Sequence record: PQ567651.1
Source: Escherichia phage cardinal
Direction: 5' to 3' (one strand)
Length of the DNA stretch: 64,000 nucleotides
Shown: positions 2,420 to 55,596 of the stretch, in pieces
How positions within the stretch are numbered: the first letter of the stretch is position 1
Layout of the letters: each line of letters opens with the position of its first letter
Position numbers and translations under genes: made by a program
The notes under the pieces: model-generated
Seen by the model: only the letters and a program-made list of their open reading frames with translations
Database searches by the model: none
What the model was told of the DNA's origin: nothing

Positions 2420-2635
2420 TTATGAAATAAATGTCAAAGTAAAATCATAATCTTTTGACAGTTTATATTGCACCTTGTTACCGTATATGTCACCTTTACG
2501 TAAAGATCCGCGAATACCTATTACATCCTTTACATCTTTAAGATTTTTCACGCCTGTAATGTCTTTATTGAAATGATCGTGATCAGAAAATAAAACCTGC
2601 TTTGCATTTTTTAACAGTGTGCGGATATTAGCCAT
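2420..2635 (-). CDS. hypothetical small protein
   Basis: 71-aa ORF preceded by palindrome 2656-2675. Confidence 0.45.
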   Translation of the reverse strand: MANIRTLLKNAKQVLFSDHDHFNKDITGVKNLKDVKDVIGIRGSLRKGDIYGNKVQYKLSKDYDFTLTFIS

Positions 2636-2655
2636 TTGATAATCTCTCTTACTAG

Positions 2656-2675
2656 GGGCGGCACTATTGCCGCCC
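2656..2675 (-). promoter_or_regulatory. GC-rich palindrome, same family
   Basis: gggcggcactattgccgccc followed by ctatgc..., then TGTCAA at the conserved distance. Confidence 0.45.
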
Positions 2676-2721
2676 TATGCATTACATTTTACTGATTTTA
2701 GTTATCTTGTCAATATTATTT

Positions 2722-2949
2722 TTAGTTTAATTGATCCAGGCACAACAAGCGATCAACATTCAGATCGGTTAGGCTAATCGTTGGCACCTGGTAGGATTCG
2801 ATGTACTCAACGCTCGACCATTGCCCGAAGTTAGCGACCGCCCAGCTATTCAAGGAAGAGTGAAGATCATCCCCTTTCTTCTCGGTGATAACTGCTACTA
2901 CCTGGGAGCTTCCAACCGTACCGGATACGCGAACAATAACGATAGCCAT
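2722..2949 (-). CDS. hypothetical small protein
   Basis: 75-aa ORF; GAAAGG RBS; palindrome 2972-2992 in the leader. Confidence 0.45.
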   Translation of the reverse strand: MAIVIVRVSGTVGSSQVVAVITEKKGDDLHSSLNSWAVANFGQWSSVEYIESYQVPTISLTDLNVDRLLCLDQLN

Positions 2950-2971
2950 AATGATAACCTTTCTTTGATTT

Positions 2972-2992
2972 GGCGGGAAACCATTTCCCGCC
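2972..2992 (-). promoter_or_regulatory. GC-rich palindrome, same family
   Basis: ggcgggaaaccatttcccgcc, identical to the copy at 5675-5695, followed by the conserved ctatgtgata box. Confidence 0.55.
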
Positions 2993-3003
2993 CTATGTGA
3001 TAT

Positions 3004-3031
3004 ATCTTACACTAATTTAAAACGTTGTCAA
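3004..3031 (-). promoter_or_regulatory. sigma70-like promoter (TTGACA, 16-nt spacer, TAAGAT)
   Basis: On the minus strand TTGACA at 3031-3026 and TAAGAT at 3009-3004; predicted transcript start falls at the edge of palindrome 2972-2992. Confidence 0.45.
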
Positions 3032-3126
3032 ATTATTTTCTATTTCTTCCGTAATAGCCCAATTTATGATCTAAGCTAAAACGTTTTGTGAGATAGGTCG
3101 AACGATGTTTCATTTTTATGTCTCCT

Positions 3127-3366
3127 TTACATTCCAACCATAGCGGCACGGATCGCGGTTTTACTGAACTTGAATCCGTCTGGCGTTTTATCTTGATCCA
3201 TACTTTCAAGAAATAACATCATATCCCGCGCTGCGTCATTCTTATTGGTGTTAGCTGCGATAAATTCACGCGCAAGATTATAAAAACCTTCATCGTTGTT
3301 GATCCAAAGGCTTACATTCCAATGAGTTTTGTTTTTGTGACCTAAGAACATTTTAGATTTAGCCAT
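3127..3366 (-). CDS. hypothetical small protein
   Basis: 79-aa ORF; palindrome 3391-3407 upstream. Confidence 0.5.
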   Translation of the reverse strand: MAKSKMFLGHKNKTHWNVSLWINNDEGFYNLAREFIAANTNKNDAARDMMLFLESMDQDKTPDGFKFSKTAIRAAMVGM

Positions 3367-4796: not shown

Positions 4797-5058
4797 GTTC
4801 GTTCGCCTCTTCTGTTAGTAGTTTACATACCTTAAACATGCTTGCCGCGTCTTTTGACGGTAGCCAGCCTATGCGATACACTCCAGGATCTGGATTCGTT
4901 ATATCTGTTAATTGAGCGTTACGATGATTAAAAATAGTGTAACCGCCGCCAGCACGGGGATAAACATTATCTTTAAACCTGATAGCGTATCTCGCCAGGT
5001 TGAACGTTGTAGCATGTTCAAAAGCGATCACATTATCAAAAACTTTTAGAAAAAACAA
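4786..5058 (-). CDS. hypothetical small protein
   Basis: 90-aa ORF overlapping the upstream gene end by a few codons, typical phage packing. Confidence 0.45.
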   Translation of the reverse strand: MFFLKVFDNVIAFEHATTFNLARYAIRFKDNVYPRAGGGYTIFNHRNAQLTDITNPDPGVYRIGWLPSKDAASMFKVCKLLTEEANEHGA

Positions 5059-5226
5059 GATTATCCTCCCCAGCGTTTAAAGCCCGTTGCACGGTTATTT
5101 TTTAACTCTCGTTTTAGTCTCTTGCAACGGTTTACAAGTGCAAACCGTGCCGGAGTGGTAACAGTAGCGCCGTTTTTGGTGTGAATACTCATTACATATT
5201 GTTTCATAAAGTTTTATCCTATGTAA

Positions 5227-5243
5227 GCGGGAACTATTCCCGC
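5227..5243 (-). promoter_or_regulatory. GC-rich palindrome, same family
   Basis: gcgggaactattcccgc upstream of an unannotated ~43-aa minus-strand ORF; TGTCAA at the conserved offset. Confidence 0.45.
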
Positions 5244-5285
5244 TTTAAGATAGCTTATCAGGTTTTAGTGCAATGTCAACCGTTT

Positions 5286-5648
5286 TTATTCGTAAATTTT
5301 ACCGCTTTCTACCCATACCATAACGCGGCGCATATTATCCCATGCATCTTGTCGCAGATTTAAGGCATGCAATTCTTCGGTTGTGCTCATACCTGGTACG
5401 GGCTTGCTATATGTTACAAAGAGATCGCCAGCATATTCATAAGCCAGGGTAAGATCACATTGAATCATCTTTTTAAGCATAGCATTAAGCATCATATTAG
5501 CGGCATGTTGATCACGTTTTAGCGGTAGCGTTGCGATCTGTGAGCGATAGCTTTCGATCCGTGCATCCACTGCATCACGTGGAAGATTTTTCACGTCGTC
5601 GCGGAAAGATACCAGGTTTAACATGATAGTATTGATTTGCTTGCTCAT
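5286..5648 (-). CDS. hypothetical protein
   Basis: 120-aa ORF; palindrome and promoter module immediately upstream. Confidence 0.5.
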   Translation of the reverse strand: MSKQINTIMLNLVSFRDDVKNLPRDAVDARIESYRSQIATLPLKRDQHAANMMLNAMLKKMIQCDLTLAYEYAGDLFVTYSKPVPGMSTTEELHALNLRQDAWDNMRRVMVWVESGKIYE

Positions 5649-5674
5649 TGTGTTACCCTTTCTTTGATGGCCTG

Positions 5675-5695
5675 GCGGGAAACCATTTCCCGCCC
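5675..5695 (-). promoter_or_regulatory. GC-rich palindrome, same family
   Basis: ggcgggaaaccatttcccgcc plus ctatgtgata box, identical to the 2972-2992 copy. Confidence 0.55.
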
Positions 5696-5705
5696 TATGT
5701 GATAC

Positions 5706-5733
5706 ATCTTATCAGATTAAAAAACGTTGTCAA
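5706..5733 (-). promoter_or_regulatory. sigma70-like promoter (TTGACA, 16-nt spacer, TAAGAT)
   Basis: TTGACA at 5733-5728 and TAAGAT at 5711-5706 on the minus strand, same architecture as 3004-3031. Confidence 0.45.
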
Positions 5734-5752
5734 GAATATTTTTTAGATAATT

Positions 5753-6067
5753 TTAACTATATGATCCACATTGTTCGCAGTAGTGATCATCGTCGCCATC
5801 AGCTACCTGGCTGATAAAGTGATCTACTTTTGCTTTTAGGTTATTATAATTGTTTTCTACTTCCTTTAATCGCTCCTGATAGTAGCCCAGGGCTTTAATA
5901 TACGCCGCCTCTTCTGTTTTTTCACGCATGGCTAAATTCATGCCGCGCGTATCATCATACAGCCAAAAGCCATCGGTACATTCACTCATTGAAAGGGTAG
6001 GGCTTAACTCTTTATGATTAATTACCTTGCTCATAGTGTGCGCCTTATAGAATGATTGAAACAACAA
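5753..6067 (-). CDS. hypothetical protein with C-terminal cysteine cluster
   Basis: 104-aa ORF ending ...HYCEQCGSYS, possibly a small zinc-binding motif. Confidence 0.45.
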   Translation of the reverse strand: MLFQSFYKAHTMSKVINHKELSPTLSMSECTDGFWLYDDTRGMNLAMREKTEEAAYIKALGYYQERLKEVENNYNNLKAKVDHFISQVADGDDDHYCEQCGSYS

Positions 6068-6418
6068 TTGCTACAGTGATCCACACTGGAACGGCTAACA
6101 AAATAGCGTTAATCGTTCCAACCGTCAAGCTGTTTTCTTTCTTGATCATCGTTATCAACCTTTTATAAGTAATGTTATTGTGACGGTGGATTGTGGAGAT
6201 CCTCACCTTTGCCCGTCCTGCATTGCGCCCTCCTTTTGTTTATTGTCGTTGTGCCTCGCCCCCCTCGACAAGATGAATAATACGCTACCAGGTGAGGAAC
6301 GTCAACCCCTTTTTTAATCTTTTTTTCATTTCTTTTTTTTGCTTGCTATCTATAAAGGAAAGGGCTATTATCTTTCTACCACGCCAACCAGGGCGCACAT
6401 CAAAGAAAGGGCGATACC

Positions 6419-6685
6419 ATGACAAATACTACTTTACACCTCATGCACTCATTAGGCTGGCAAGGCGGCACGGTGCACCAGGTAGCAAGCGCAACGGGCT
6501 TAAAGGTTGAAACCGTTCTCAACCTGGGCGATCATAAGGTGGAAGAAATAGATCATTTTGATACGTTCGCAAATGGTTATCTATGGGCTTGCAGTGGCGG
6601 CGGGGAAAGCAAGATCCCACCAGGGGCGCGGGGTGATATATATTTTTGGTTAGGTGTCCTATCCTGGCAAGAAAACAAAAAATAA
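6419..6685 (+). CDS. hypothetical protein
   Basis: 88-aa ORF, first plus-strand gene after the divergent region. Confidence 0.4.
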   Translation: MTNTTLHLMHSLGWQGGTVHQVASATGLKVETVLNLGDHKVEEIDHFDTFANGYLWACSGGGESKIPPGARGDIYFWLGVLSWQENKK

Positions 6686-6835
6686 TATTGACAAGCCCAG
6701 GGATCGGGCTTATACTGTTTTACATACAGAAGAGGAAGCGCCACCCCCACGGCGTAAAGGCGGGGCTAACATACCAGGGCACTACTGGTTGGAAGGTTGA
6801 TCGCTGGTACAACGTATTTACAAAGGAGGTTAGCA

Positions 6836-7429
6836 ATGAAAAAAGTTTTTGGAGTAGGCATTAACGATAGTGCAAAGCCGATCAAAGGTTGTCGATTCTA
6901 TGCAACATGGCGCAACATGTTACAACGTTGTTATAGTGAATCATATCAGGACAAAAGGCCATCTTATAAAGGTTGTAGTGTTTGTGATGAATGGTTGACG
7001 TTTAGCACTTTTCGTGCTTGGATGGAACAGCAGGATCACCAGGGAAAACAATTAGATAAAGATATAATAACACCGGGTAATAAACTCTATTGTCCTGATC
7101 GTTGCGTATTTGTAACGCAAGAAATGAATAGTTTGTTAACAGTTACAAAGAGTAACAAAGGGGATCATCCTTTGGGTGTTTCATTTTTGAATCATAAACC
7201 ATTGCCGCGCCCTTATTTAGCAACAATACGTTATAATAACGTAGTGGAAAGATTAGGGTACTATGTAGATCCTTTATCCGCTCATTTGGCCTGGAATAGG
7301 CGCAAACGTGAAATAATCATAGAGATTATTAGTAATGAAACGGATTCAAGGATCGCCGCTGGCTTGGCTTTACGTGTTGACGCTCTCGATCTGGCTTATG
7401 AAAATAAAGCGGAAATAACTTGCTTATGA
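6836..7429 (+). CDS. putative homing-endonuclease-like / DNA-binding protein
   Basis: AGGAGG RBS then ATG at 6836; motif ATWRNMLQRCYSESY...YKGCSVCDEWLTFSTF, resembling the W..M..RC...Y.G..VC..W..F..F signature of phage HNH-associated proteins (assigned from memory). Confidence 0.4.
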   Translation: MKKVFGVGINDSAKPIKGCRFYATWRNMLQRCYSESYQDKRPSYKGCSVCDEWLTFSTFRAWMEQQDHQGKQLDKDIITPGNKLYCPDRCVFVTQEMNSLLTVTKSNKGDHPLGVSFLNHKPLPRPYLATIRYNNVVERLGYYVDPLSAHLAWNRRKREIIIEIISNETDSRIAAGLALRVDALDLAYENKAEITCL

Positions 7430-7432
7430 CGC

Positions 7433-7461
7433 TTGACAAGCGCCCGACAAGGGCGCATAAT
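7433..7461 (+). promoter_or_regulatory. sigma70-like promoter (TTGACA, 17-nt spacer, CATAAT)
   Basis: TTGACA at 7433-7438 and CATAAT at 7456-7461; fires into the non-coding repeat region. Confidence 0.45.
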
Positions 7462-7682
7462 CTCTTACATAGACAGGAACGCCTACCAATGGCGCTAAAC
7501 TTGGTGATGATAGCCGCAGGGCATCGACAGCTATAATCGCCGGTAGCTCGTCTAAAATAAATTTGTAAAGAAATGTAAAGATAAAAATAATCGCTTGCTT
7601 TTGTTGTTGGTTATGCTATTCTTATTGTATGGCGAGGGGACACGGGAGCGCGAGACAAACACCGCCCCTGCGCGTTATTTTC

Positions 7683-7800
7683 TAAATGAGAAAATTCTCA
7701 TTTGCTAATGATTCTCATTCTCTTACTGAGAATGATTATCACTTACATAATTAAATGATAATGATTCTCATTTACAAATGAGAATGATTATCATACGCAT
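7683..7800. promoter_or_regulatory. cluster of AT-rich palindromes resembling Fur boxes
   Basis: tgataatgattctcatt and aatgagaatgattatcat match the GATAATGATAATCATTATC Fur consensus at about 14-15 of 19 positions; 3-4 overlapping copies. Confidence 0.35.
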
Positions 7801-7810
7801 ACCTATAAAA

Positions 7811-8035
7811 ACACGAAATTGAACTTTTCATTTTTGATTTTTCTACGGAAAAAGGCAAAAAAACTTTAAATAAACTGGGGAATTTTTAAAAAATTGAAGT
7901 TTTCATTTTCAAAATCTGGATAGAAATACGTACAAAAACTTTAAATAATTTTGACCAAACTTGAACTTTTCATTTTCAAAATTTGTACCCAAAAATCTGT
8001 AAAAACTTTAAATAATTTTGTACTTTTTATAAAAA
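7811..8035. repeat. three tandem ~72-bp direct repeats (iteron-like)
   Basis: Each unit contains ttgaa(c/g)ttttcatttt(c/t)aaaat and aaaaactttaaataa; AT-rich, no ORF. Confidence 0.6.
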
Positions 8036-8171
8036 TGATTTTACTGTTCTGTTATAAGTAGTAGTTAAGAGATAGTATGCCTTTTAAAGATCAGATACCA
8101 TAGTCAAACAAACAAATTAAATACTTTATTAACAGAGTACAGAATAATATTTACTCTGGATATATTATTCA

Positions 8172-8210
8172 GAGGGTGGATTTCCGTACATGAAACCCAC
8201 ACCCCTTTTT
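8172..8210 (+). terminator. putative intrinsic terminator
   Basis: gggtggatttc / gaaacccac stem followed by ccccttttt; no plus-strand CDS upstream, so it may end a non-coding transcript. Confidence 0.4.
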
Positions 8211-8331
8211 ATAAAAATAAAAATTTTCAAAATATCAGTAAATATCAGATTGTGCTTTTAGATAAACAGCAAGGTCTGTATGCCATTTTCCTAAAAGATT
8301 TTGTCCTTTCCAACAGTCCTTATTTTCCACA

Positions 8332-8787
8332 TCACGATCCCACATTCCCATTTTTGATACCATAAATAGAATCATAAGGGCTTGCCTCTACGAACTCCTT
8401 ATCTGCGTAAGCGATAAGTTTATTTTTGAGATCTTCATTTTGTGTGTATTTAAGATACAAACCACGTTTGACAATCTTCTCCCGTAAAGAAGTCCAGGTA
8501 TCTTCATCATAATCTTTAACTAATCTGCCTAGACGTTTATAATATGCTTGTTCTTTTTCTCCTGTATATCTTAGATCTCCGGTTAAAATAGAAGATGCAA
8601 TATTGTAATCATAAAACAAACATGCTTTTCTCCACATCATATATTGTTCCACACAAGTAAATTCGACAGAACTTGTGATAGAATTATTATACTTGGGAGC
8701 TAAAGGTTCAATAAAAGATGATAGATACCAGTTGCTAAATTCATCTTTTGCCGAGAAAAAGAACACATACTTGTCAGTAATCCGCAT
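8332..8787 (-). CDS. NADAR (YbiA/DUF1768-like) domain protein, putative ADP-ribose N-glycosidase
   Basis: 151 aa; FFFS..DEFSN, CVEQYMMWRKA, YKRLGR, WTSLREKIVKRGLYLKYTQNEDLKNKL and SPYDSIYGIKNG align with the conserved blocks of E. coli YbiA. Confidence 0.65.
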   Translation of the reverse strand: MRITDKYVFFFSAKDEFSNWYLSSFIEPLAPKYNNSITSSVEFTCVEQYMMWRKACLFYDYNIASSILTGDLRYTGEKEQAYYKRLGRLVKDYDEDTWTSLREKIVKRGLYLKYTQNEDLKNKLIAYADKEFVEASPYDSIYGIKNGNVGS

Positions 8788-10185
8788 TTACACCTCCTTA
8801 TTGTATACTAATTTGCCACCATATTGTGTAACAATTTTTTGAAGATTTTCCAAATCAGAAACACTTACTGTTTCTGTATGACCATCTTTCAACTCTCTTG
8901 CCGTTAAAATACCAGTTTTTAATTTTTTCTTTATAGCTCTTTCAGCAGCCTTACATTGTTTCACTGTGCTAAAATCATATAAACAAATACGCTCCATAGG
9001 AAACATATTACAGCTATTTTGACGTTTTAATCGACTATCACTATTTTTAGCTATACCAAACTTAAGAGCAACTATAATATTATCATCCTTAACAATATTA
9101 ATATATAACTGCTGCTGACTATGACCAGCACACATAGGACAACCTCGACCGTGGCTTAATAAGGCATTAGCCCTCCCTGTCTGTTCCCCATGCACAAGAC
9201 AAAGATATTTAAACTTACCGTGACTTCTAGACGGTTTACCGATCCAACCTACCCAGACATACCCTTTCCCTTCTACTTCCTTTTTTACCCTGTAGGTAAT
9301 CTGATTTTCTGTATAGTGATAACTAGTTGCACAGCGGCAAGGGATACTTCCTTGTTTTAGGGGCCACCCTTTAGAGTAAAATTTACCATCGCAAACACCT
9401 GCTTGAACATATTCATCATGGGAGCAAACAGGACACTCAACCATCCATACTGCATCACGCTTGTTACGTTTCCCTGTATTGGTGAAGATAGTGCCTTCCT
9501 TAAATTTCCCTGTAGAAAAGAAATCTGCAATATGTTGATCGTCGGACATTGTTAGTGCCTTCCTTGTATTCTCATACCTACATAAAGGACAACCATAACC
9601 ACGTTTAAAATTGTTAATACTTGTAGTATCCCATTTATAACCACAGTGACACAACAAATCAAGTTTTGTTTTATGTCCTTTCCATTTTCCAACGTACCCT
9701 AACACCTGATACCCCTTCTTCTGTGCTATCTCTTCCAAGATCGGTAATTCTGTTTCCCATGCTAACGGTTTATTACTTGCACATGCCGGACAACCACGTC
9801 CATTCCTAAAATCAATAATGTTTGTGGTGTTCCACTCTCCATGTTTAGGGCAAATTATGCGAATTTTTGTTCGCACACCTCGCCACTCCTCGGCAAGACC
9901 TATAAAAGTAAACCCTCTTTCTTTAGCAATATCAACAAGGGAGATACATTCCTTTTCTTCTGTTACTTTTCTATGACCATTGCAATCGGAGCAACATTTA
10001 CCGCCTTTAGTTTTAAATACATTGATTATGGTACTTTCCCACTCTCCATGATCAGAGCAAGATAGCTTAAGCCTAGTCCTGCTACCTTTCCATTCACCAA
10101 CATAACCCAAGATTTGAATATTGTGATTTTTAGCAAGGGGTATTAATTCTTCTTTATATTGTTCCCATGATTTTAGTGCTACCAT
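8788..10185 (-). CDS. protein with five tandem zinc-ribbon-like repeats and a C-terminal T5orf172/GIY-YIG-like domain
   Basis: Five ~50-aa repeats of the form GY.G.WKG..T...L.C..HGEW......F..G.GC..C; C-terminus IVALKFGIAKNSDSRLKRQ...AERAIKKKL resembles the T5orf172 family. Confidence 0.5.
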   Translation of the reverse strand: MVALKSWEQYKEELIPLAKNHNIQILGYVGEWKGSRTRLKLSCSDHGEWESTIINVFKTKGGKCCSDCNGHRKVTEEKECISLVDIAKERGFTFIGLAEEWRGVRTKIRIICPKHGEWNTTNIIDFRNGRGCPACASNKPLAWETELPILEEIAQKKGYQVLGYVGKWKGHKTKLDLLCHCGYKWDTTSINNFKRGYGCPLCRYENTRKALTMSDDQHIADFFSTGKFKEGTIFTNTGKRNKRDAVWMVECPVCSHDEYVQAGVCDGKFYSKGWPLKQGSIPCRCATSYHYTENQITYRVKKEVEGKGYVWVGWIGKPSRSHGKFKYLCLVHGEQTGRANALLSHGRGCPMCAGHSQQQLYINIVKDDNIIVALKFGIAKNSDSRLKRQNSCNMFPMERICLYDFSTVKQCKAAERAIKKKLKTGILTARELKDGHTETVSVSDLENLQKIVTQYGGKLVYNKEV

Positions 10186-11838: not shown

Positions 11839-12046
11839 TCTTTATTCCTCACTTACCTTTTAAGGAAACCAATCATAATGAAGAACCACATCCAGGCAGG
11901 AGAGATAATAAAGCCAAAGAAACCGCAAATAACCGCTTTCTTAATCTCTTCCAGACAACCCACCAGGAAAAGACCGAGTGAGACTACAATCCAGATAGCC
12001 ATAAATACTGTAACAAAGAAACTCATACCTTTCTCCCGTCTGTATT

Positions 12047-18244: not shown

Positions 18245-18721
18245 ATGTCTAAACGTTTTGGTCGTAATCAAAAAAGAAAGTTAAGTGCTCAACTAGCAGC
18301 TTTGCAAAAAGAGGTTAACACTTTACAAAAAAGTGTTTGTGAACTTAAGGAACAAAACCAACTTGAAAAAGAGTGTATCCAGCTTACACAGGAAGTTATT
18401 GGTGAGTATTTTCCTTCACTAGTTCCTAAGAAGGTGGCTCTTAGGGAAAATCTACCTTTTACCTTGTCCTTAATGCAAGCAAATGATAGATTCCAAACTG
18501 AAACTGATGATTTGATGTTTGCAATGCATCAATTACATGGTTTAGAATATACAGCACAAGTGGATAAACTTCGTAACATGTTATATGTGCGGGTAGAAAC
18601 ACCTAAAGGTGAGACAGTAGCTTTTAATTATAATTTCCAACAGCTACCTGATCATATTATTGAACAAATTTTAAAACGAGATTTTGTTCCTATGCTTGTT
18701 AAACAAATTAAGAGAGGTTGA
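18245..18721 (+). CDS. hypothetical protein with N-terminal coiled coil
   Basis: 158-aa ORF; heptad-like QLAALQKEVNTLQKSVCELKEQNQLEKE. Confidence 0.5.
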   Translation: MSKRFGRNQKRKLSAQLAALQKEVNTLQKSVCELKEQNQLEKECIQLTQEVIGEYFPSLVPKKVALRENLPFTLSLMQANDRFQTETDDLMFAMHQLHGLEYTAQVDKLRNMLYVRVETPKGETVAFNYNFQQLPDHIIEQILKRDFVPMLVKQIKRG

Positions 18722-18722
18722 A

Positions 18723-21497
18723 ATGGCTAAGAAAGAGTTGAGCTTCACTCCGACAGAAGAGCAAACAGCTATTAAGGAGGCTTTTCCAGATCATCGCTTT
18801 TTAACTATCCAAGCTAAATCTGGATCAGGTAAAACGTCAACACTTTATTTGCTGGCTAACAGTACAGAAGATCGCATTCTTTACTTAGCTTTCAATAAAA
18901 GCATGGCAGAAGAAGCACGACGTAAGATGCCACCAAATGTAGAATGCCGTACATTGCATTCTATTTGCTATCAATTCCTGGATCATCGTTTACGTGCAAA
19001 ACTGTCACGACCAGAAGGACAGTATGTTAACGTTGCAGGTACAGGTAGCGAGATAGCAAAGAAATTTAAGATTAATAATCTTATTGATAAACGAGGGAAA
19101 ACACTTTTAACTCGTGCTATGATTGGTTTAATGATCAAGCAAACCGTAGGTAAGTTTGAATTTTCGGATGATCCTTTTATCAGCCGTAAACATTTTCCTA
19201 GTGTACATCTTGCAGATATTAAAAGAAAAGGTATTAACGAACACAAACTAATTACAGAAGTAGTTAAGTATGCAAAACAATTGTGGCGAGAGCGCATCGA
19301 TCCTAACACAGATACTTTGATGACGCATGACACCTATGTAAAATTGTTTGAATTGTCTGGTGCTGATCTTGGTTATGACATTATTTTTGGGGATGAATTC
19401 CAGGATGTTAACCCTGCATTCTTGTCTATTCTGCGAAATGCTAAATCTGCAAAACAAATTGTGGTAGTTGGCGATGAATTCCAATGTGTGTCGGAAAACA
19501 CGGTACTTAACACCGAGAATGGTCAGGTTACAATGAAAGACCTGCAAATCGGTGATAAGGTAGAGTCTTATTCTAATGGTAAAGTTACATTTAGAAAAGT
19601 AACAAATAAGACTTTATCTACACGTACAAAAGGTAGGAATATTATTACTGCTACAGGTAAAACTTTAGATATGACACATAACCATCGTATTTGGGCTTCA
19701 TCCTATGTTCTGAAAGATGACCAGATGGTGGTATACCTAATGTGGAGGAAAGATTTAGGTTTCCGAGTAGGGATCACTAACAAATTCGATGATAAAGAAG
19801 GTTTTTCTAAACTGGGGCAACGTACACGTTCTGAAAAAGCACAGAAATTATGGGTGTTGGACATTGTTGAAAATCGCGAAGCTGCTATGGAAAAAGAAAT
19901 GGCATACAGTTTACAATATGGCATTCCTACTTGTGTATTTGAAGCAAGTTCACGCGGCATTAATCAAGAAAGGATCAATAACATCTTTGAACAATTCGGA
20001 CAAAATGGTTTTAAACTTTTAGAGGATAAAGATTATCATTTTGCTTATCCACACTGGCACAGCATCAATTGTGCAGTAGATGAAAGAAAAATGCTAACAG
20101 TGACTTTGCGAGCACAAAGTTGTAAAGGAACACAAGTTAGTTTTGAGTGGACAGAAAGTGAAATGCCGATCTATTCTTCACTGATTAAAGCAGGTGTAAG
20201 CGTAAGTGCTGCTAAATTGGAAGGTCGTTACCGTGTACGTAAATATTTCAATTCTTATCGTGAAGCATTGAGTTTTGCACAAAAGATCCTTGAAATAGTT
20301 CCGTTTGCATCTTTAAAAGAATGCATGTCCTCTGTGAACAGTGCCAAATATAACTTAATTCCGGCAGCGGGTTTGTTTAAAGGCATGTCTGTGTTGGTAA
20401 AAGATGGTGATACTGTAACGGCAGAAGAGATTGTGGATATTGTAGATAGTGAGGGTATCTATTATGATATTGAAGTAGAGGATACTGCTAACTTCTTTGG
20501 CAATGAAATTCTTAGCCACAACTGCATTTATCAATTTAGAGGTAGCTCTAATATGATGATTGAAACAGCTAAGTATGGGGCAGAACTTCCATTAACTGCT
20601 TGCTTCCGTTTTGGCCCCAAAGTGGCAAACATTGCCAATATGATTTTAAGCGATAAAGAACCTTTGCGTCATCCTTTGGTTGGTAAAGGCTTTGATACTG
20701 TAGTAGGTAGCTACAAATCAGATGTTGTAGACTATACAAAACCTTACACTATCATCTTTCGCAAGAATTTAACCTTGCTTATGGAGGCAATGGATCGTAT
20801 TGCAGATGGGGAAGAAATTATTATTAACGTAGATACCAGGGATTTTATCTCTATGGTAGATAGTGTTAATGCTCTTCGGAGAGGAGATATTGAGAAAGTA
20901 AAACATGAAACTGTATTACCTTACGCAGACTGGGATGAATTTGTTGAGTGTGCAGAGGCTGATCCAGATGCTAAACGCTTGTTAAACATCGTAGTTTCTG
21001 GTAAGGCGAACACCATAGCACATACACTTAGAACGCACAGAAATTCTCCTACAGCAAAAGTCACACTTACTACAGCACACAAGTCTAAAGGTTTGGAGTG
21101 GGATCAGGTTATTGTTGCTAATGATTTTCCTTCCAACTATGATAAAAAGACTGGTGAATGGGTAGGACTAGAAGAGGCAGAGCGAAACCTACTGTATGTA
21201 GCGCATACCCGTTGTGTTAAATGCTTACAATGGAACACAACCGTACAGGAGATTATAGATATCAATCGTGTTGCAACAGAGAAAGTACCAACAAGCACCA
21301 CTTTACCGATCAATGGTATTAAACTTGGTGTATTTGGCGCTGGCACATCTCGAAAAACTGTAGAAAAATTTGTTGCAGATTCTTTTGATGGTAACTATAA
21401 TCATGCACAAGCATATGAGAGTTGGTTAGAGGAAGGTGAAGGTGATTTTTTAGGTGAAATAAATCTTTTACCAGACATAAATAAACTGGTAAACTAA
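18723..21497 (+). CDS. UvrD/PcrA-like SF1 DNA helicase containing an intein
   Basis: Walker A AKSGSGKTST, motif II FGDEFQDVN, motif III split as VVGDEFQ | intein | CIYQFRGSS; precursor 924 aa. Confidence 0.8.
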   Translation: MAKKELSFTPTEEQTAIKEAFPDHRFLTIQAKSGSGKTSTLYLLANSTEDRILYLAFNKSMAEEARRKMPPNVECRTLHSICYQFLDHRLRAKLSRPEGQYVNVAGTGSEIAKKFKINNLIDKRGKTLLTRAMIGLMIKQTVGKFEFSDDPFISRKHFPSVHLADIKRKGINEHKLITEVVKYAKQLWRERIDPNTDTLMTHDTYVKLFELSGADLGYDIIFGDEFQDVNPAFLSILRNAKSAKQIVVVGDEFQCVSENTVLNTENGQVTMKDLQIGDKVESYSNGKVTFRKVTNKTLSTRTKGRNIITATGKTLDMTHNHRIWASSYVLKDDQMVVYLMWRKDLGFRVGITNKFDDKEGFSKLGQRTRSEKAQKLWVLDIVENREAAMEKEMAYSLQYGIPTCVFEASSRGINQERINNIFEQFGQNGFKLLEDKDYHFAYPHWHSINCAVDERKMLTVTLRAQSCKGTQVSFEWTESEMPIYSSLIKAGVSVSAAKLEGRYRVRKYFNSYREALSFAQKILEIVPFASLKECMSSVNSAKYNLIPAAGLFKGMSVLVKDGDTVTAEEIVDIVDSEGIYYDIEVEDTANFFGNEILSHNCIYQFRGSSNMMIETAKYGAELPLTACFRFGPKVANIANMILSDKEPLRHPLVGKGFDTVVGSYKSDVVDYTKPYTIIFRKNLTLLMEAMDRIADGEEIIINVDTRDFISMVDSVNALRRGDIEKVKHETVLPYADWDEFVECAEADPDAKRLLNIVVSGKANTIAHTLRTHRNSPTAKVTLTTAHKSKGLEWDQVIVANDFPSNYDKKTGEWVGLEEAERNLLYVAHTRCVKCLQWNTTVQEIIDINRVATEKVPTSTTLPINGIKLGVFGAGTSRKTVEKFVADSFDGNYNHAQAYESWLEEGEGDFLGEINLLPDINKLVN
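19485..20522 (+). mobile_element. intein (346 aa) inserted in helicase motif III
   Basis: Begins with Cys (CVSENTVLNTENGQV...), ends ...EILSHN followed by +1 Cys; extein junction restores GDEFQ-CIYQFRG. Confidence 0.7.
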
Positions 21498-23832: not shown

Positions 23833-24690
23833 ATGACCCAAAAACTATATGAGGATGTAATCGGATTCCTCGAACAAACATCCGAAGAATTTACTCGTGA
23901 AAATGCAAACAAACCTGCAATGATTGTTAATACTCACCGAGATTTACTAGCAGGTATCCTAAGCAAGCACATGGCAATGACCCATATTTTACCTGAAGAT
24001 TTAGCAGAATGGCATAAAAGTGGGTATGGTCACATCCACGATTTAGATTATTTACTCTCACCTTTAACTAATTGTTGCCTGGTAAATTACCAAGATATGC
24101 TTGAGAACGGTTTCCGTATTGGTAATGCACATATTGAAAAACCAAAATCTATCGGTGTAGCGACTACTGTCCTAACTCAAATTATTCAAGCAGTAGCTTC
24201 TAGCCAATATGGTGGACAAACTTGTGCACATGTTGATACTGGGCTTAGTCAATACGTTAAAGCAAGTTTTAATAAAATATATGCCGATGTTGGCGATTAT
24301 GATATTGCTATGCGTATGGTAGATAAACAGGTCTATGATGCAATGCAAACTTTAATCTACCAGGTGAACACTCTAATGAGTGTAAATGGTCAGTCACCTT
24401 TTATAACAATTAGTTTAGGTTTGGATACCTCTGCTTTTGGTAGAATGATCACTAAAAACTACCTAATGGTGCACAAACAAGGATTGGGAAAAGATAGGGT
24501 AACTCCTGTGTTTCCTAAAGTTATCTTCTTCTTGGAAGATGGTGTTAACATGAAAGCTGGCGATCCAAACTATGATTTGAAGCAACTGGCAATGGAGTGT
24601 TGTGCTGAACGCATTTATCCTGATTTTATCTCTGTACCTTTAAACAAAGAAGTTACAGGATCTTCAGATGGTCGCGTCACAAGCATGGGT
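23833..24690 (+). CDS. nrdD: anaerobic ribonucleoside-triphosphate reductase, exon 1
   Basis: Aligns with E. coli NrdD from NENANK...RDLLAGI through GDPNYDLKQLAMEC to ...VTGS...MG; exon ends on U after the Gly codon. Confidence 0.85.
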
Positions 24691-24970
24691 AAACTATAAC
24701 TGCTCATGTAAAATCTGCCTAAACGGGGGAACTCTCAACGAGACAATCCCGTGCTAAACGTAACAGAACTCCCAACACAGAAGAAGGGGGGTACTATTAC
24801 GAAATGCCTAACGACTAGCTGTGATGAATGTAGCAGCGTAGGGTGTAAGCCTATGACACCCCAAATGGTAGACATGCTTTAAGCATGAAGATATAGTCTG
24901 ATCTGCATGGTGACATGCAGCAGCACGTAATGGTGCGGGAGTGGCCTTGCGAGCCACTTTGAACATAATG
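24691..24970 (+). mobile_element. group I self-splicing intron (ORF-less) in nrdD
   Basis: 280 nt separating two NrdD halves that sit in different frames; core element ctaaacgggggaactctc...gacaatcccgtgctaaa closely resembles the phage T4 td/nrd intron core; 5' exon ends in U and intron ends in G. Confidence 0.75.
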
Positions 24971-25912
24971 TGTAGAAGTTTCTTGTCATACTATGCAACA
25001 GAGCAAGGTGAAAAATATGATGGTCGTTTCAACTTAGGCGTAGTTTCTTTAAACTTACCTATCATTGCAGCAGAGTCCCGTGAAAAGGGCATCTTATTTA
25101 CTGAACTGTTGGAACAACATATGGAGATGGCGTATAAGGCACATATGCTACGTGTTAACCGTATTAGACATACCAAAGCATCTCAAAACCCTACATTGTT
25201 TATGGAAGGGGCTTTAGCTCGACTAGAAGCTAATGAAGAGATTGGTAAACTATTTGAAGGTGGTTATGCCTCTATTAGTATCGGTTATGTAGGTTTAGCA
25301 GAAGCTATGGAGATTTTATACCCAAATAACACCAATCCAAAAGCAATGGGTAAAAACATCCTTCAATATATGAAGGATATCTGTTGCACATTTAAAGAAC
25401 GTTCTGGTTTAGCTTTTAGTTTGTATGGAACACCAGCAGAATCCTTGTGCTATAAATTTGCCAAAGCGTTAAATGATCGCTATCCTGGCTCTATTGATCG
25501 TGACTATTTGACAAACTCTTTCCATCAACCTGTATGGATGCACACTACCCCGTTCCAAAAGTGGGATTATGAGGAAGGTTTTGCACAAATTAGTAATGGT
25601 GGGAACATAGGTTATGTAGAAACACCAAACCTTAAAAATAACTTGCAAGCACTGGAAACTCTTGTAGATTATGCCTACAATAAAATTCCTTATTTTGGCG
25701 TGAACCAACCTGTAGATCAGTGTTTCAAATGTGGTTTTCATGGTGAATTTAAGGCAACAGCTAAAGGCTTCGAGTGTCCAAGTTGTGGAAATCATGAAGA
25801 AGAATCCATATCTGTGATCAGAAGAGTGTCAGGATACCTTTCTGCTCCTAACTCTCGCCCTTATAATAAAGGTAAGATGCAAGAGGTACTAGAAAGGGAG
25901 AAACACTTTTGA
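24971..25912 (+). CDS. nrdD: anaerobic ribonucleoside-triphosphate reductase, exon 2
   Basis: Begins CRSFLS (E. coli MGCRSFLG), contains NLGVVSLNLP, the C..C...C..C zinc ribbon and glycyl-radical motif RRVSGYL. Confidence 0.85.
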   Translation, partial: CRSFLSYYATEQGEKYDGRFNLGVVSLNLPIIAAESREKGILFTELLEQHMEMAYKAHMLRVNRIRHTKASQNPTLFMEGALARLEANEEIGKLFEGGYASISIGYVGLAEAMEILYPNNTNPKAMGKNILQYMKDICCTFKERSGLAFSLYGTPAESLCYKFAKALNDRYPGSIDRDYLTNSFHQPVWMHTTPFQKWDYEEGFAQISNGGNIGYVETPNLKNNLQALETLVDYAYNKIPYFGVNQPVDQCFKCGFHGEFKATAKGFECPSCGNHEEESISVIRRVSGYLSAPNSRPYNKGKMQEVLEREKHF

Positions 25913-39314: not shown

Positions 39315-39878
39315 ATGATATTTCACATAACTCCCTATCTTTCTGGAGATATTGGAAAAGGTATCAATGACACAATAAGTGTCTTACCAGAAGATAGTTG
39401 GATTTGCCTAAGAGACATTGATACAATGTTTCTTCTTCCAGAACAACCTGCTTGGTTGGAATCAATAGTCCGTTCAAATCCTGATTTTGATGTTCTTGGT
39501 GCATCTTGTAATAGATTGGGATCAACATATCAATTATTTAATAATGAAAGAAGTGAAGATCCAAATATATTACACCACATTGAGATTGCAAAAAGAGCAC
39601 ATCTAGAATGGGGAAACTCAATAGAGGAAGTACCTACAGATGCTATCTTAGCAGGATTCTTTCTTCTCTTTCGTAAGAGTCTGTGGAATGAAATCCCTTT
39701 TGAGGAAAGATCAATACAGTTTGATATAATTTTCTCTAAAGCATTACACGCTAACAATAAAAGGCTAGGTTTATTACGTGGGCTATATTTATTTCACACA
39801 TACCGTTTAGGTAGTGATGATCCTAGGAAAGCTGTTTCACACCTTTTACATTGTCAAGACATGAATAAAATTATTTAA
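39315..39878 (+). CDS. putative glycosyltransferase-like protein
   Basis: 187 aa with D.D-like CLRDIDTMF; first gene of a four-gene cassette; weak assignment. Confidence 0.3.
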   Translation: MIFHITPYLSGDIGKGINDTISVLPEDSWICLRDIDTMFLLPEQPAWLESIVRSNPDFDVLGASCNRLGSTYQLFNNERSEDPNILHHIEIAKRAHLEWGNSIEEVPTDAILAGFFLLFRKSLWNEIPFEERSIQFDIIFSKALHANNKRLGLLRGLYLFHTYRLGSDDPRKAVSHLLHCQDMNKII

Positions 39879-53634: not shown

Positions 53635-55596
53635 TTATGTGCGTTTAGCAACAATAGCATCCACGTAATCACCAACACCACAATATGTTAGTTGTAGTAT
53701 TGTTACTCCGTTAGGATTTGTATTAATATCACTAGAACCAATTACTTTGTAAGATGGGTCTAAAGTAACAGTACGACCCCCAGTGGCATCTTGGATAAGA
53801 TAAACTATTGCAGAGAATGGTTTAGGTTTTGTGCTATCTTCGACACCAGGCCATGCTTTTATAGTAGAGTTACCAGTAAGATTCAACACATTCATGTTAT
53901 GTGTTCCTGGAGGTGTCCAGTCCCCTGTAACAGAGTTGTTGGTGTATGCTGTAACCTCTATAAAATTAGTTGTTACTTTTGTTGGAACTATATCTTGACC
54001 ATCTACAGAACTAGTGAGTTCTTCCCATGCTCCATCTTTACGAGCATAGATCTTACCGTCACTAGGTGCATCTGTGATGCTAGGTAGTGTACCTTGAGAA
54101 GTCCAGACAGTTGCAGATGTTTTTAAGAACACCTCACCAGTGGAGATATTAAAGGCATAATCACCTTGTTTACCATCACTAGAAATTGGATCTGTTGTTT
54201 TAACAATCCAATTTGCACCATCCGTACCGTTAGTACCAGCGTCACCTTTCTCACCCTTATCACCTTTCAAACTACCCATATCTACATATTCAGCAGTTTG
54301 AGTTTGTTCATTATAGGTGTAAATGTAAAGATGACCTGTATCTTCCGTCAGATAAGCATCACCGTAATTGGCTGTAGGAGGAAGCGCACTTGCAGACGCA
54401 ACGTGTCCTTTTGCAGTGATTGGAGTACCAGCTAAACGACCAACATTTGTCCACTCTGTGGCTCCTTGCAACCAGACCCAAAGTTCATTATTGATCAGAT
54501 AACCATCACCCTCTTCTCCAGTTTGTGGTAGTTCAGAAGTGTCAGTCAGAATATCAATAATGGTCAACCCTGCACCAGTTGGCCCCGTCAAGCCTTGTAT
54601 ACCCTGCTTACCTTGATCACCCTTGTCTCCCTTATCACCTTTTTCTCCTTTCAGAGAGGCAATATATTCGTCAATAGTACCAACGTTACCAGCGTTTAAC
54701 CAGACTTGATAAGCTGAATCACCAGTGTTACCCTTATCTCCTTTGTCGCCTTTATCTCCTTTTGGCCCCACTATAGCACCCATATTGATCCATTCTACAC
54801 CGTTTGACACGTATAGATATGTACCAATACTCCATGCTTGAGATGTGTTTCCAGGAGATGCAGAAGGAAGATCTGAAACGGAATTAGCTGCACCTTGGTA
54901 ATCAAAACCATTAGCATTGTTACCTGGTACACCTTGTGGCCCCTCTGGGCCAGGCTCCCCTTTATCACCTTTAATTGAAGCAAGATAATCTAGTTCTGTA
55001 CCTTGGTTTCCTGCTGCAAGCCAAACTTGATAAGCTGATTTACCTTCTGGCCCCTGTGAGTTTACTTTTCTCCAAGCAGTACCATCCCAAGCATACATAT
55101 TCTCGCCTACAATCCATGCATCTCCTGCATTGTTTCCGGTTGTAGGTAATTGGTTGGTATTAGATAGTGTCCCTAGCAGCTTTAATGGAGCACCTGGATC
55201 ACCTTTTAAAGAAGCCAACCAGTCTGTCTCAGTACCTTGGAAACCATTGTCTACGGCAATCTGGTAAGCTGATTTACCAGCTTCTGGAATGGATTCTCTA
55301 AGATCTTCAATTTCAGCTTCAATAGCATCTAATTCTGATTCTATTTGAGCAATGTCATCTGCATTACCCACATTTTTCCAAGCTGTATCTGAAATCCCTC
55401 CAGTAGATGTAGGAGTAGAGTTAGCAGGTACAACTTTAGGTAGAGAACCTTTCCACTGATAGTAGTTACCGTCAGTTTCAAAGAGCAATGCTTCACGAGC
55501 ATCTCTTAAGGTAAAACCACTTGCAAAACTTCTACGCTTTCTATAGCGAGACTCTACCATGTCTGCAATGGCACTATTTGGACGTGTTAAAATCAC
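53635..55596 (-). CDS. tail fibre protein with collagen-like Gly-X-Y tracts and phage tail-fibre repeats
   Basis: GDKGEPGPEGPQGVPG, GPKGDKGDKGDKGNTG, GEKGDKGDKGDQGKQGIQG tracts; three copies of SAYQ(V/I)..(A/N)G..GTE.D(W/Y)(L/I)ASLKG. Confidence 0.75.
   Translation of the reverse strand: MILTRPNSAIADMVESRYRKRRSFASGFTLRDAREALLFETDGNYYQWKGSLPKVVPANSTPTSTGGISDTAWKNVGNADDIAQIESELDAIEAEIEDLRESIPEAGKSAYQIAVDNGFQGTETDWLASLKGDPGAPLKLLGTLSNTNQLPTTGNNAGDAWIVGENMYAWDGTAWRKVNSQGPEGKSAYQVWLAAGNQGTELDYLASIKGDKGEPGPEGPQGVPGNNANGFDYQGAANSVSDLPSASPGNTSQAWSIGTYLYVSNGVEWINMGAIVGPKGDKGDKGDKGNTGDSAYQVWLNAGNVGTIDEYIASLKGEKGDKGDKGDQGKQGIQGLTGPTGAGLTIIDILTDTSELPQTGEEGDGYLINNELWVWLQGATEWTNVGRLAGTPITAKGHVASASALPPTANYGDAYLTEDTGHLYIYTYNEQTQTAEYVDMGSLKGDKGEKGDAGTNGTDGANWIVKTTDPISSDGKQGDYAFNISTGEVFLKTSATVWTSQGTLPSITDAPSDGKIYARKDGAWEELTSSVDGQDIVPTKVTTNFIEVTAYTNNSVTGDWTPPGTHNMNVLNLTGNSTIKAWPGVEDSTKPKPFSAIVYLIQDATGGRTVTLDPSYKVIGSSDINTNPNGVTILQLTYCGVGDYVDAIVAKRT

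Follow-up and report, generated by a model that had tools for sequence, protein, structure and literature searches.

In footprinted operators of the Escherichia coli ferric uptake regulator Fur, overlapping binding sites offset by 6 bp have been reported, an arrangement in which two Fur dimers occupy opposite faces of the helix, and 83% of the E. coli Fur clusters overlap a promoter (Chen et al., PMC2189734). Phage-borne Fur boxes have been reported only upstream of cargo genes, e.g., sitABCD on lambdoid prophages (PMC6969025), and the literature searched contains no paper that ties Fur to T5-like, rV5-like or phAPEC8-like virulent phages. For phage T5, a preprint by Davison places the calculated shear point of the DNA within Repeat Region 3 and treats DnaA boxes at length; Fur and iron are never mentioned in it. 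The present analysis concerns a stretch of 64,000 nucleotides from Escherichia phage cardinal (sequence record PQ567651.1), hereafter the window, to which all coordinates refer unless another genome is named. At 7701–7801, the window contains an array of four near-consensus Fur boxes, B to E, which were delineated with a Fur weight matrix and the 7-1-7 consensus and have no strand. Judging by its sequence, this array is very likely bound by E. coli Fur, and all features tested, apart from promoter overlap and control of an iron gene, place it among the Fur operators.

To obtain the Fur matrix de novo, we used the upstream regions of 16 operons of strain MG1655 whose repression by Fur is well established (fepA-fes, fepD-entS, fepB-entC, fhuA, fhuE, fecA, fecI, cirA, tonB, exbB, fiu, ryhB, fhuF, sufA, fur and bfd) and an expectation-maximisation motif search with 1,107 unbiased seeds. 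The resulting motif, AATGATAATAATTATCATT, contains 15.4 bits of information and is least informative at position 6 (T 0.55, G 0.22), at the mirror position 14 and at the centre. For the E. coli sites used in training, the median score is 16.4 bits (leave-one-out) and the highest, that of ryhB, 22.2 bits (in-sample). On the same scale, box B (7701–7719) scores 18.3 bits, box C (7725–7743) 18.2 bits, box D (7754–7772) 25.0 bits and box E (7777–7795) 22.8 bits, i.e., all four are at the level of accepted E. coli Fur sites or above it. Each box has a weaker overlapping site offset by 6 bp and scoring between 6.8 and 15.7 bits; these partners start at 7707 (10.0 bits), 7731 (9.9 bits), 7760 (6.8 bits) and 7783 (15.7 bits) for boxes B to E, respectively. 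The 7-1-7 core TGATAATnATTATCA, when two or fewer mismatches are allowed, is found four times within 7703–7793 (one mismatch in three boxes, two in the remaining one) and twice elsewhere in the 64 kb, with 0.93 matches expected. The classical Fur 19-mer is matched at 16/19 positions twice inside the array, compared to 0.06 such matches expected per 64 kb.

An earlier note on this DNA, made from the letters alone, had described Fur-like palindromes here that fit the consensus at 14–15 of 19 positions; the likeness holds and its degree was understated. The palindromes it quoted are present at 7756–7772 (tgataatgattctcatt), 7777–7794 (aatgagaatgattatcat) and 7685–7702 (aatgagaaaattctcatt). The last of these does not stand as a Fur box in the present isolate: box A (AATGAGAAAATTCTCATT, 7685–7702, no strand) is a degenerate box of the 7-0-7 type, one A short, with a score below 5 bits. 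Its orthologue is intact in the sister genome OZ035770 and in phage BME3, where it scores 19.9 bits. The same note had named a weight-matrix scan as the way to check its suggestion, and in that scan the boxes scored far above shuffled AT-rich DNA and equalled or surpassed proven E. coli operators. When 7683–7800 was subjected to 5000 dinucleotide shuffles, no shuffle attained the observed maximum or the observed four sites of at least 10 bits, and the equally AT-rich stretch 7801–8250 peaks at just 6.6 bits; the shuffles together with this control stretch rule out chance AT-rich palindromes. In 71,880 non-training positions of E. coli, the Fur matrix finds no site of 12 bits or more. When 5,426 genomes of E. 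coli were searched with the array by BLAST, only matches with E > 1 were obtained, an uninformative outcome given the short query and the very large database.

The sole other site in the window that exceeds 15 bits is located at 54900–54918 (17.2 bits, AATCAAAACCATTAGCATT), within the tail-fibre gene 53635–55596. It is kept in the sister genome at 33081, and this isolated site is probably fortuitous. Separately, in the 20022–20053 region, 5 nt separate a weak Fur-like site (8.9 bits) from a DnaA box without mismatches (TTATCCACA, 20045–20053), within an open reading frame (ORF) of 937 amino acids (18684–21497).

A motif derived solely from 13 regions of phage DNA, for which neither a palindrome was imposed nor E. 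coli sequence supplied, reads AATGAGAATGATTCTCATT and correlates with the E. coli Fur matrix at r = 0.96, the maximum for column-permuted controls being 0.70. Variation in the phage motif is confined to positions 6, 10 and 14, which carry the least information in the Fur motif, and the host matrix is matched at all 16 informative positions. The array itself matches the Fur motif at every informative base, is conserved, and occupies a fixed place in a conserved module. The half-site preferred by the phages, TGAGAAT, is present in the best motif sites upstream of fecI, fhuE, ryhB, fhuA and exbB. The best plasmid match to boxes D–E is found 20 nt upstream of the IucA/IucC-IucD siderophore operon of Moraxella plasmids, which is an archetypal Fur-controlled context. 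Among other regulators, Zur, ArgR, FNR and CRP were set aside as binders, without a scan, because their consensus half-sites are unlike TGAGAAT/TGATAAT.

These comparisons bear on the possibility that the palindromes are bound by a phage-encoded DNA-binding protein whose specificity resembles that of Fur. The usage of G and T at position 6 indeed differs between phage and host, with TGAGAAT accounting for 58 of the half-sites counted compared to the G frequency of 0.22 in E. coli, and a potential binder of this kind is exemplified by T5 A2, a pre-early protein that binds DNA as a dimer and for which no site is known. However, 16/16 informative positions coincide with the host Fur matrix; the motif is found in phage families that share no detectable homologue of A1 or A2 and on contigs with a GC content from 21% to 49%; and the genes flanking the array include no recognisable DNA-binding regulator. 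A phage protein with this specificity thus appears very unlikely, and the suggestion of the earlier note that a different protein recognising AT-rich palindromes might be involved is disfavoured by the agreement of the two motifs outside positions 6, 10 and 14.

It is highly improbable that the palindromes are maintained as secondary structure (e.g., as a cruciform or, in a transcript, as a terminator hairpin or a target of RNase III) rather than as a protein site. Boxes D and E do fold as an 18-bp hairpin (−18.8 kcal/mol, z = −6.5), and the weak microRNA-like matches to Rfam in this region reflect the box hairpins. Nevertheless, in a set of 82 distinct strong phage boxes, positions 6 and 14, which face each other in the putative stem, are complementary in 40 boxes and non-complementary in the other 42, indicating that pairing is not selected and that selection acts on a protein site with degenerate half-sites. 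Furthermore, conservation tracks the Fur information profile and not base-pairing, and the geometry of the array varies by genus (e.g., the direct 29-bp spacing in phAPEC8) while the box is constant.

By the evidence of the alignments, the array is a fixed component of a non-coding module of about 1.5 kb that is common to two phage subfamilies. The module comprises, in this order, a strong constitutive promoter whose spacer contains a hairpin, a leader, the first Fur box, further boxes, three to four iteron-like repeats and AAATATCA repeats, and this order is kept in Justusliebigvirus, Phapecoctavirus (phAPEC8), a Klebsiella phage of the Stephanstirmvirinae and, within the Vequintavirinae, Seunavirus (EspYZU14) and Certrevirus (CR3). 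Box 1 immediately follows ...CCTGCGCG-YATTCT in Justusliebigvirus, Phapecoctavirus, the Klebsiella relative, Seunavirus and Certrevirus, and its Fur-informative bases are invariant in an alignment with a mean column identity of 66%. The total number of boxes varies: in phAPEC8, there are four with an exact spacing of 29 bp (25.0, 18.2, 23.0 and 10.5 bits), the modules of the Klebsiella phage and of CR3 also contain four, and that of EspYZU14 contains a single one of 24.2 bits.

In the window, the module includes two copies of the promoter, both on the plus strand. The ancestral copy, at 6688–6716, is a strong sigma-70-type promoter (TTGACA-17-TATACT, 11/12 consensus positions) with a hairpin in the spacer and is also found in alia, phAPEC8, Klebsiella phage phi1_175008 and CR3. 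The second copy, TTGACA-17-CATAAT at 7433–7461, also with 11/12 positions, arrived with the insertion of an HNH endonuclease gene and is the promoter that the earlier note had recognised upstream of the palindromes; the statements of that note that tandem repeats lie on the 3' side of the boxes and that no protein-coding gene separates the promoter from the repeats are borne out as well, the repeats being located at 7816–8036 and the only ORFs in between having 38 amino acids or fewer. A candidate promoter over box C (TTACTG-17-CATAAT) was rejected: its −35 element fits the consensus at 2/6 positions, and it is missing from the promoter scan.

The conserved non-coding leader (7462–7684, plus strand; TTTGTAAAGAAATGTAAAGA ... 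CATGGCGAGGGGACACGGGAGCGCGAGACAAACACC ... CCTGCGCG) can be aligned across the two subfamilies at 7536–7684, and a part of it of about 150–220 nt is kept across Stephanstirmvirinae and Vequintavirinae (loci L001, L005–L008 and L114), with the invariant blocks TTTGTAAAGAAMTGTAAAGA and CATGGCGAGGGG.ACGGGA.CGCGAGACAAACACC. A search of Rfam at gathering and permissive thresholds detects no family in the region of the leader and array; weak matches to microRNA and PrrF families in this region were dismissed as hairpin artefacts. The covariation term obtained with RNAalifold for the leader is +1.17, i.e., there is no covariation support, and a structured RNA is therefore not supported for the leader. 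An intrinsic terminator just before the array (7631–7682) was also rejected, its stability being no better than that of shuffles (z = −0.1).

Downstream of the boxes, at 7816–8036, in a stretch with 75% A+T, there are three iteron-like repeats of 67–75 bp (GAACTTTTCATTTT ... AAAAACTTTAAATAAT) with no strand. Such repeats, of 65–75 bp, follow the Fur boxes in every genus and have sequences specific to the subfamily; those of Seunavirus and Certrevirus, located at the same place, differ (GAGAATACG...CTCGATCGAGACC; locus L007 1700–1900, locus L008 1770–1960). The combination of iterons that differ and boxes that are constant between subfamilies is the pattern expected if a phage-specific protein acts on the iterons and a conserved host protein on the boxes. 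On the plus strand, a terminator-like hairpin followed by a T run is found at 8174–8210 (−15.4 kcal/mol and z = −2.06 for the 61-nt stretch 8155–8215) and would be predicted to end plus-strand transcripts running through the array. At its right edge, the module has AAATATCA direct repeats (8230–8250, no strand), which are present in two to five copies across both subfamilies (e.g., locus L008 2190–2270, locus L007 2145–2240 and locus L005 2190–2205).

The explanation ranked first, which we hold with somewhat less than even confidence, is that the array recruits host Fur to the module in cis and thereby gates the module by iron. The cluster would then consist of authentic, very high-affinity operators for host Fur, and we infer that iron-loaded Fur dimers, up to two per box, occupy it and coat about 100 bp (7701–7801). 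In an iron-replete cell, the resulting nucleoprotein block would act as a roadblock or gate between the upstream promoters and the iteron region, which itself probably serves replication or regulation; under iron scarcity, this block would be absent. Accumulating genome copies would also soak up Fur through the same sites.

Several observations weigh against this proposal. No strong promoter overlaps the boxes: inside the array, there are just promoter-like matches at 9/12 positions (7765–7794 on the plus strand and 7784–7755 on the minus strand), and the 11/12 promoter lies 240 nt upstream, a distance downstream of the transcription start from which, in the E. coli cases known, Fur represses weakly (PMC2189734). 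The suggestion of the earlier note that the palindromes control a non-coding transcript fares accordingly: the layout, with a strong promoter 240 nt upstream, no gene beyond the boxes and the hairpin at 8174–8210, is compatible with it, and a strong promoter overlapping the boxes is missing. The ORF list and the PHROG and Pfam searches show no ORF and no iron-related gene downstream of the array. An origin function of the iterons is unsupported: there is no DnaA box (TTATNCACA) within 12 kb of the array, the whole window contains four compared to 4.8 expected, and GC skew mirrors only gene orientation and transcription, with no skew switch of the kind seen at origins; the nearest candidate for an initiator is an AAA ATPase with a weak DnaC-like similarity, 2.5 kb away. 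The number of boxes in the same module ranges from one to five, and one has been lost in the present isolate, so that the exact dose is not critical. Finally, arrays elsewhere are found in differing contexts (near terL; inside the long terminal repeat of T5), which a position-independent role such as sequestration fits at least as well.

The array is not the only cluster of Fur boxes in these genomes. The sister genome OZ035770 (148,442 bp) contains 11 sites of 15 bits or more compared to 0.56 expected (200 shuffles, maximum 4), and 10 of the 11 are located in two non-coding regions, namely, the array and the largest ORF-free gap (91355–92572). This gap contains the physical terminus of the genome. 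The termini of BME3, mapped with PhageTerm, form a direct terminal repeat of 342 bp (PMC12210895); in the corresponding record (PP239276), positions 1–342 recur at 147,030–147,371. The terminal repeat of BME3 holds Fur sites of 24.4 and 17.4 bits, and two further sites are located at 1159–1235. The internal array of BME3, at 11,877–11,988, is positioned at 8.1% of the genome from the left end, and the interval between the terminus and the array includes only small leftward genes of unknown function. The Vequintavirinae phage KP12 has the same layout, with the terminal cluster at locus L149 398–1184. The earlier note could see neither this second cluster nor the conserved module nor the homology to the injection stop signal of T5.

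In T5 (NC_005859), three Fur sites that score 20.2, 25.0 and 21.0 bits, all accompanied by a second site at an offset of 6 bp, are found at 9552–9715, within the annotated injection stop signal (9140–10149) and 33 nt from the major nick at 9748. The position of these boxes, at 7.9% of the genome, equals the size of the DNA transferred in the first step, and by order and coordinates they correspond to the DRC/DRE repeats and the palindromes palE–palJ of Davison's Repeat Region 3. T5-like phages have three to seven Fur boxes of 20–25 bits inside the annotated injection stop signal. Boxes are found at 2343–2361, 2616–2634 and 2974–3166 of the locus from phage PHZ191 (L003) and at 2588–3102 of locus L004. 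In PHZ191, single boxes are located to the left of the array, one beside a terminator and another immediately preceding a small gene. BLAST connects the array of the window directly with that of T5.

This link raises the possibility that the array is the part that binds a host factor in a boundary at the inner limit of the immediate-early tenth of the genome, the first to enter the cell. This boundary, an analogue or homologue of the injection stop signal of T5, would act on the entry of DNA or insulate the early region. Compatible with such a boundary are the position of the T5 boxes with respect to the injection stop signal, the nick and the 7.9% point; the location of the calculated shear point of T5 DNA among the corresponding DRE/DRC repeats and palindromes; the BME3 layout, with the array at 8.1%, small leftward genes in between and Fur boxes in or beside the terminal repeat; the presence of this layout in KP12; and the direct BLAST match between the two arrays. 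However, the region of the window lacks DRD repeats and a cluster of DnaA boxes, the terminal repeat is not long (342 bp in BME3), no homologue of A1 or A2 is detectable, and two-step transfer has never been reported for this group of phages. Moreover, a cytoplasmic DNA-binding protein would be expected to aid DNA entry rather than to stop it, and the coincidence at 8% hangs on one PhageTerm result. Altogether, a boundary of this type appears unlikely. With regard to the T5 components, DRD repeats (GTGCAAATCCGACA) have a single match with one mismatch in the window, at 39397, unrelated to the array, and tblastn searches with T5 A1, A2 and dmp against the window and the complete sister genome gave only matches with E > 0.8, a weak test for small, fast-evolving proteins.

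With the array alone as query, BLAST retrieves 347 phage records, which belong to Stephanstirmvirinae, Vequintavirinae, Demerecviridae of the T5-like kind and the jumbo phage RaK2 (346 kb). In IMG/VR, a scan for the exact pattern yielded at least 120 loci, and at least 26 loci carry three or more sites of at least 15 bits within 250 nt; among the array loci listed, most lack T5 or rV5 signatures, and the GC content ranges from 21% to 49%. Unrelated viral contigs with three to nine strong boxes include, among the matches listed, L042, L070, L075, L097, L133, L139 and L028, the last of which is Klebsiella phage RaK2. In 6 of the 8 annotated lineages, the array is located within about 0.5–2 kb of the large-terminase gene, and one array-bearing contig encodes a large terminase subunit (TerL) that is 72% identical to that of Pelagibacter phage HTVC115P. 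In contig L042, an HNH gene adjoins the Fur-box region.

The breadth of this distribution bears on a different role, in which the boxes mainly sequester Fur in trans as the phage reaches hundreds of copies. With at least nine super-consensus sites per genome, such a sponge would strip the host operators of Fur and shift the cell to the iron-starvation mode (siderophore uptake, RyhB-mediated iron sparing, nrdHIEF), which could supply iron or deoxynucleoside triphosphates for phage production; the array would then be a non-coding 'auxiliary metabolic' element. In accord with sequestration, the sites equal or exceed the best host operators in strength, they are distributed over two or more non-coding regions of the genome (the terminus in addition to the internal array), the boxes are not overlapped by strong promoters, the number of boxes varies from one to nine among isolates and lineages, and arrays are present in unrelated phages in differing contexts, including a pelagiphage-like contig from iron-poor seas; the high copy state is deduced from lytic replication. 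Multicopy Fur boxes, as reportedly observed by Stojiljkovic in 1994, de-repress the Fur regulon in vivo, which is the principle of FURTA and counts in favour of this role. Zheng, in 1999, is said to have found about 5,000–10,000 Fur monomers per E. coli cell, a number that makes titration quantitatively plausible.

On the other side, T5-like phages degrade the host DNA and shut off host transcription within minutes of infection. The phages with the largest arrays are T5-like, and with the host DNA destroyed early, de-repression of host genes cannot be the benefit there. In addition, the Seunavirus module has a single box, and the strict position of box 1 after the leader would be unnecessary. 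We regard sequestration in trans as the principal role as somewhat doubtful; recruitment in cis is ranked above it because the placement of box 1 is invariant across subfamilies, which a pure sponge does not need. The two roles are not mutually exclusive. The earlier note had also proposed a Fur-titrating decoy that de-represses TonB-dependent receptors of the host. The decoy itself is plausible given the many super-consensus sites in at least two places of the genome, but the rationale based on receptors is weak because extra receptors on an already infected cell give the phage no gain and because T5-like phages with equivalent arrays destroy the host DNA early.

A broader proposal, which is decidedly doubtful at present, is that super-consensus Fur-box arrays are a general, unrecognised phage element that hijacks the iron regulator of the host in T5-like, rV5-like, phAPEC8-like, RaK2-like and pelagiphage-like viruses. 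In its strongest form, Fur would be the missing host factor of the T5 injection stop signal, with an equivalent boundary at 8% in the rV5/phAPEC8 group; alternatively, the arrays would be a Fur sink that switches the cell to the iron-acquisition mode.

With respect to the genome setting, positions 7536–8250 (715 bases) show 97–99% identity in BLAST searches to the Justusliebigvirus phages outra, alia, inny, EmilieFrey and others, and the window can be assigned on this basis to a Justusliebigvirus-type E. coli myophage. These relatives are virulent E. coli myophages of 145–150 kb that belong to the subfamily Stephanstirmvirinae. The Fur-box array is situated in a gap of about 2.3 kb (6068–8331) that separates two leftward gene blocks, the left one ending at 6067 and the right one starting at 8332–8787. 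The gap holds a small plus-strand island that consists of an 88-aa ORF, the promoters, the HNH gene, the leader, the boxes, the repeats and the hairpin. The 88-aa ORF (6419–6685, plus strand), at the left edge of the island, is the counterpart of inny_195 and belongs to PHROG 19316, of unknown function; it is conserved in Stephanstirmvirinae, and a Pfam search with it gave no match. The HNH homing-endonuclease gene (6797–7429, plus strand; PHROG 953, E = 4e-82) is inserted in the leader of the module. It is missing from the closest relatives, with the best phage matches starting only at 7536, and with the insertion came a second, divergent copy of both promoter and 5' leader (6688–6795 versus 7433–7545). 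The neighbours of the array encode a NADAR-domain protein, a CapR/T5orf172 endonuclease, the AAA ATPase and the HNH endonuclease; PHROG and Pfam searches with the flanking proteins identified no iron-related gene and no recognisable DNA-binding regulator. Elsewhere in the window, a group I catalytic intron is found at 24645–24920 (Rfam RF00028, 72.3 bits, full-length), between ORFs 23833–24699 and 24941–25912, which suggests an intron-split gene.

Fur operators as such are textbook knowledge; gene-free rows of operators that are stronger than the host sites and occur across unrelated phage families are undescribed in the literature searched. If Fur binds them, these phages would read or manipulate the iron status of the host without encoding a protein for that purpose, and the T5 injection stop signal, with its repeats unexplained for about fifty years, would gain a concrete host factor. 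Non-coding transcription-factor sponges would then join auxiliary metabolic genes among the means by which phages reprogram nutrient acquisition. Sequestration of Fur, if true, would be relevant for iron-limited oceans and for phage therapy in iron-restricted host tissues.

Compared with the known systems, the array most closely resembles the E. coli Fur operators of the ryhB, fecI, fhuF, fepA-fes and iucA type, with which it shares the 19-bp palindrome AATGAtAATnATTaTCATT, the tolerated variation at positions 6, 10 and 14, the overlapping sites offset by 6 bp, and the extent of the cluster, about 100 bp. It differs from them in having neither an adjacent iron-homeostasis gene nor an overlapping strong promoter and in its location in a virulent phage; furthermore, host operators usually contain one to three strong sites, whereas the phage array contains four or five, all of 18–25 bits. 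FURTA similarly involves many high-affinity Fur sites on a high-copy replicon and is a precedent for a sponge; it is, however, a laboratory cloning artefact, unlike the phage array, a conserved natural element. The Fur boxes of temperate phages (stx1, and sitABCD on lambdoid phages) are likewise sites for host Fur on a phage genome (PMC6969025), but they are single operators on promoters of iron-related cargo in prophages, whereas the arrays described here are cargo-free and belong to virulent phages. Iteron origins (lambda ori, P1 oriR and R6K gamma) resemble the module in the combination of AT-rich non-coding DNA, phage-specific iterons, sites for host factors and transcription entering from a nearby promoter; their host factor is DnaA or IHF and not Fur, and the module lacks DnaA boxes, a skew signal and an adjacent identified initiator. 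The T5 injection stop signal differs from the array of the window in its eight DnaA boxes, its nine DRD repeats and its location within a 10-kb terminal repeat. Nevertheless, the two are alike in the arrays built on the same Fur motif (in T5, TAAATGAGAATCATT... with 20–25 bits), in the large, conserved, repeat-rich untranslated region located after a terminator and before other repeats, probably, to judge from BME3, in the distance of about 8% from the left genome end, and in the HNH endonuclease insertion nearby. What is new with respect to all these systems is the presence of cargo-free arrays of super-consensus Fur boxes in conserved control regions and at the termini of virulent phages, a feature shared with the region of the T5 injection stop signal.

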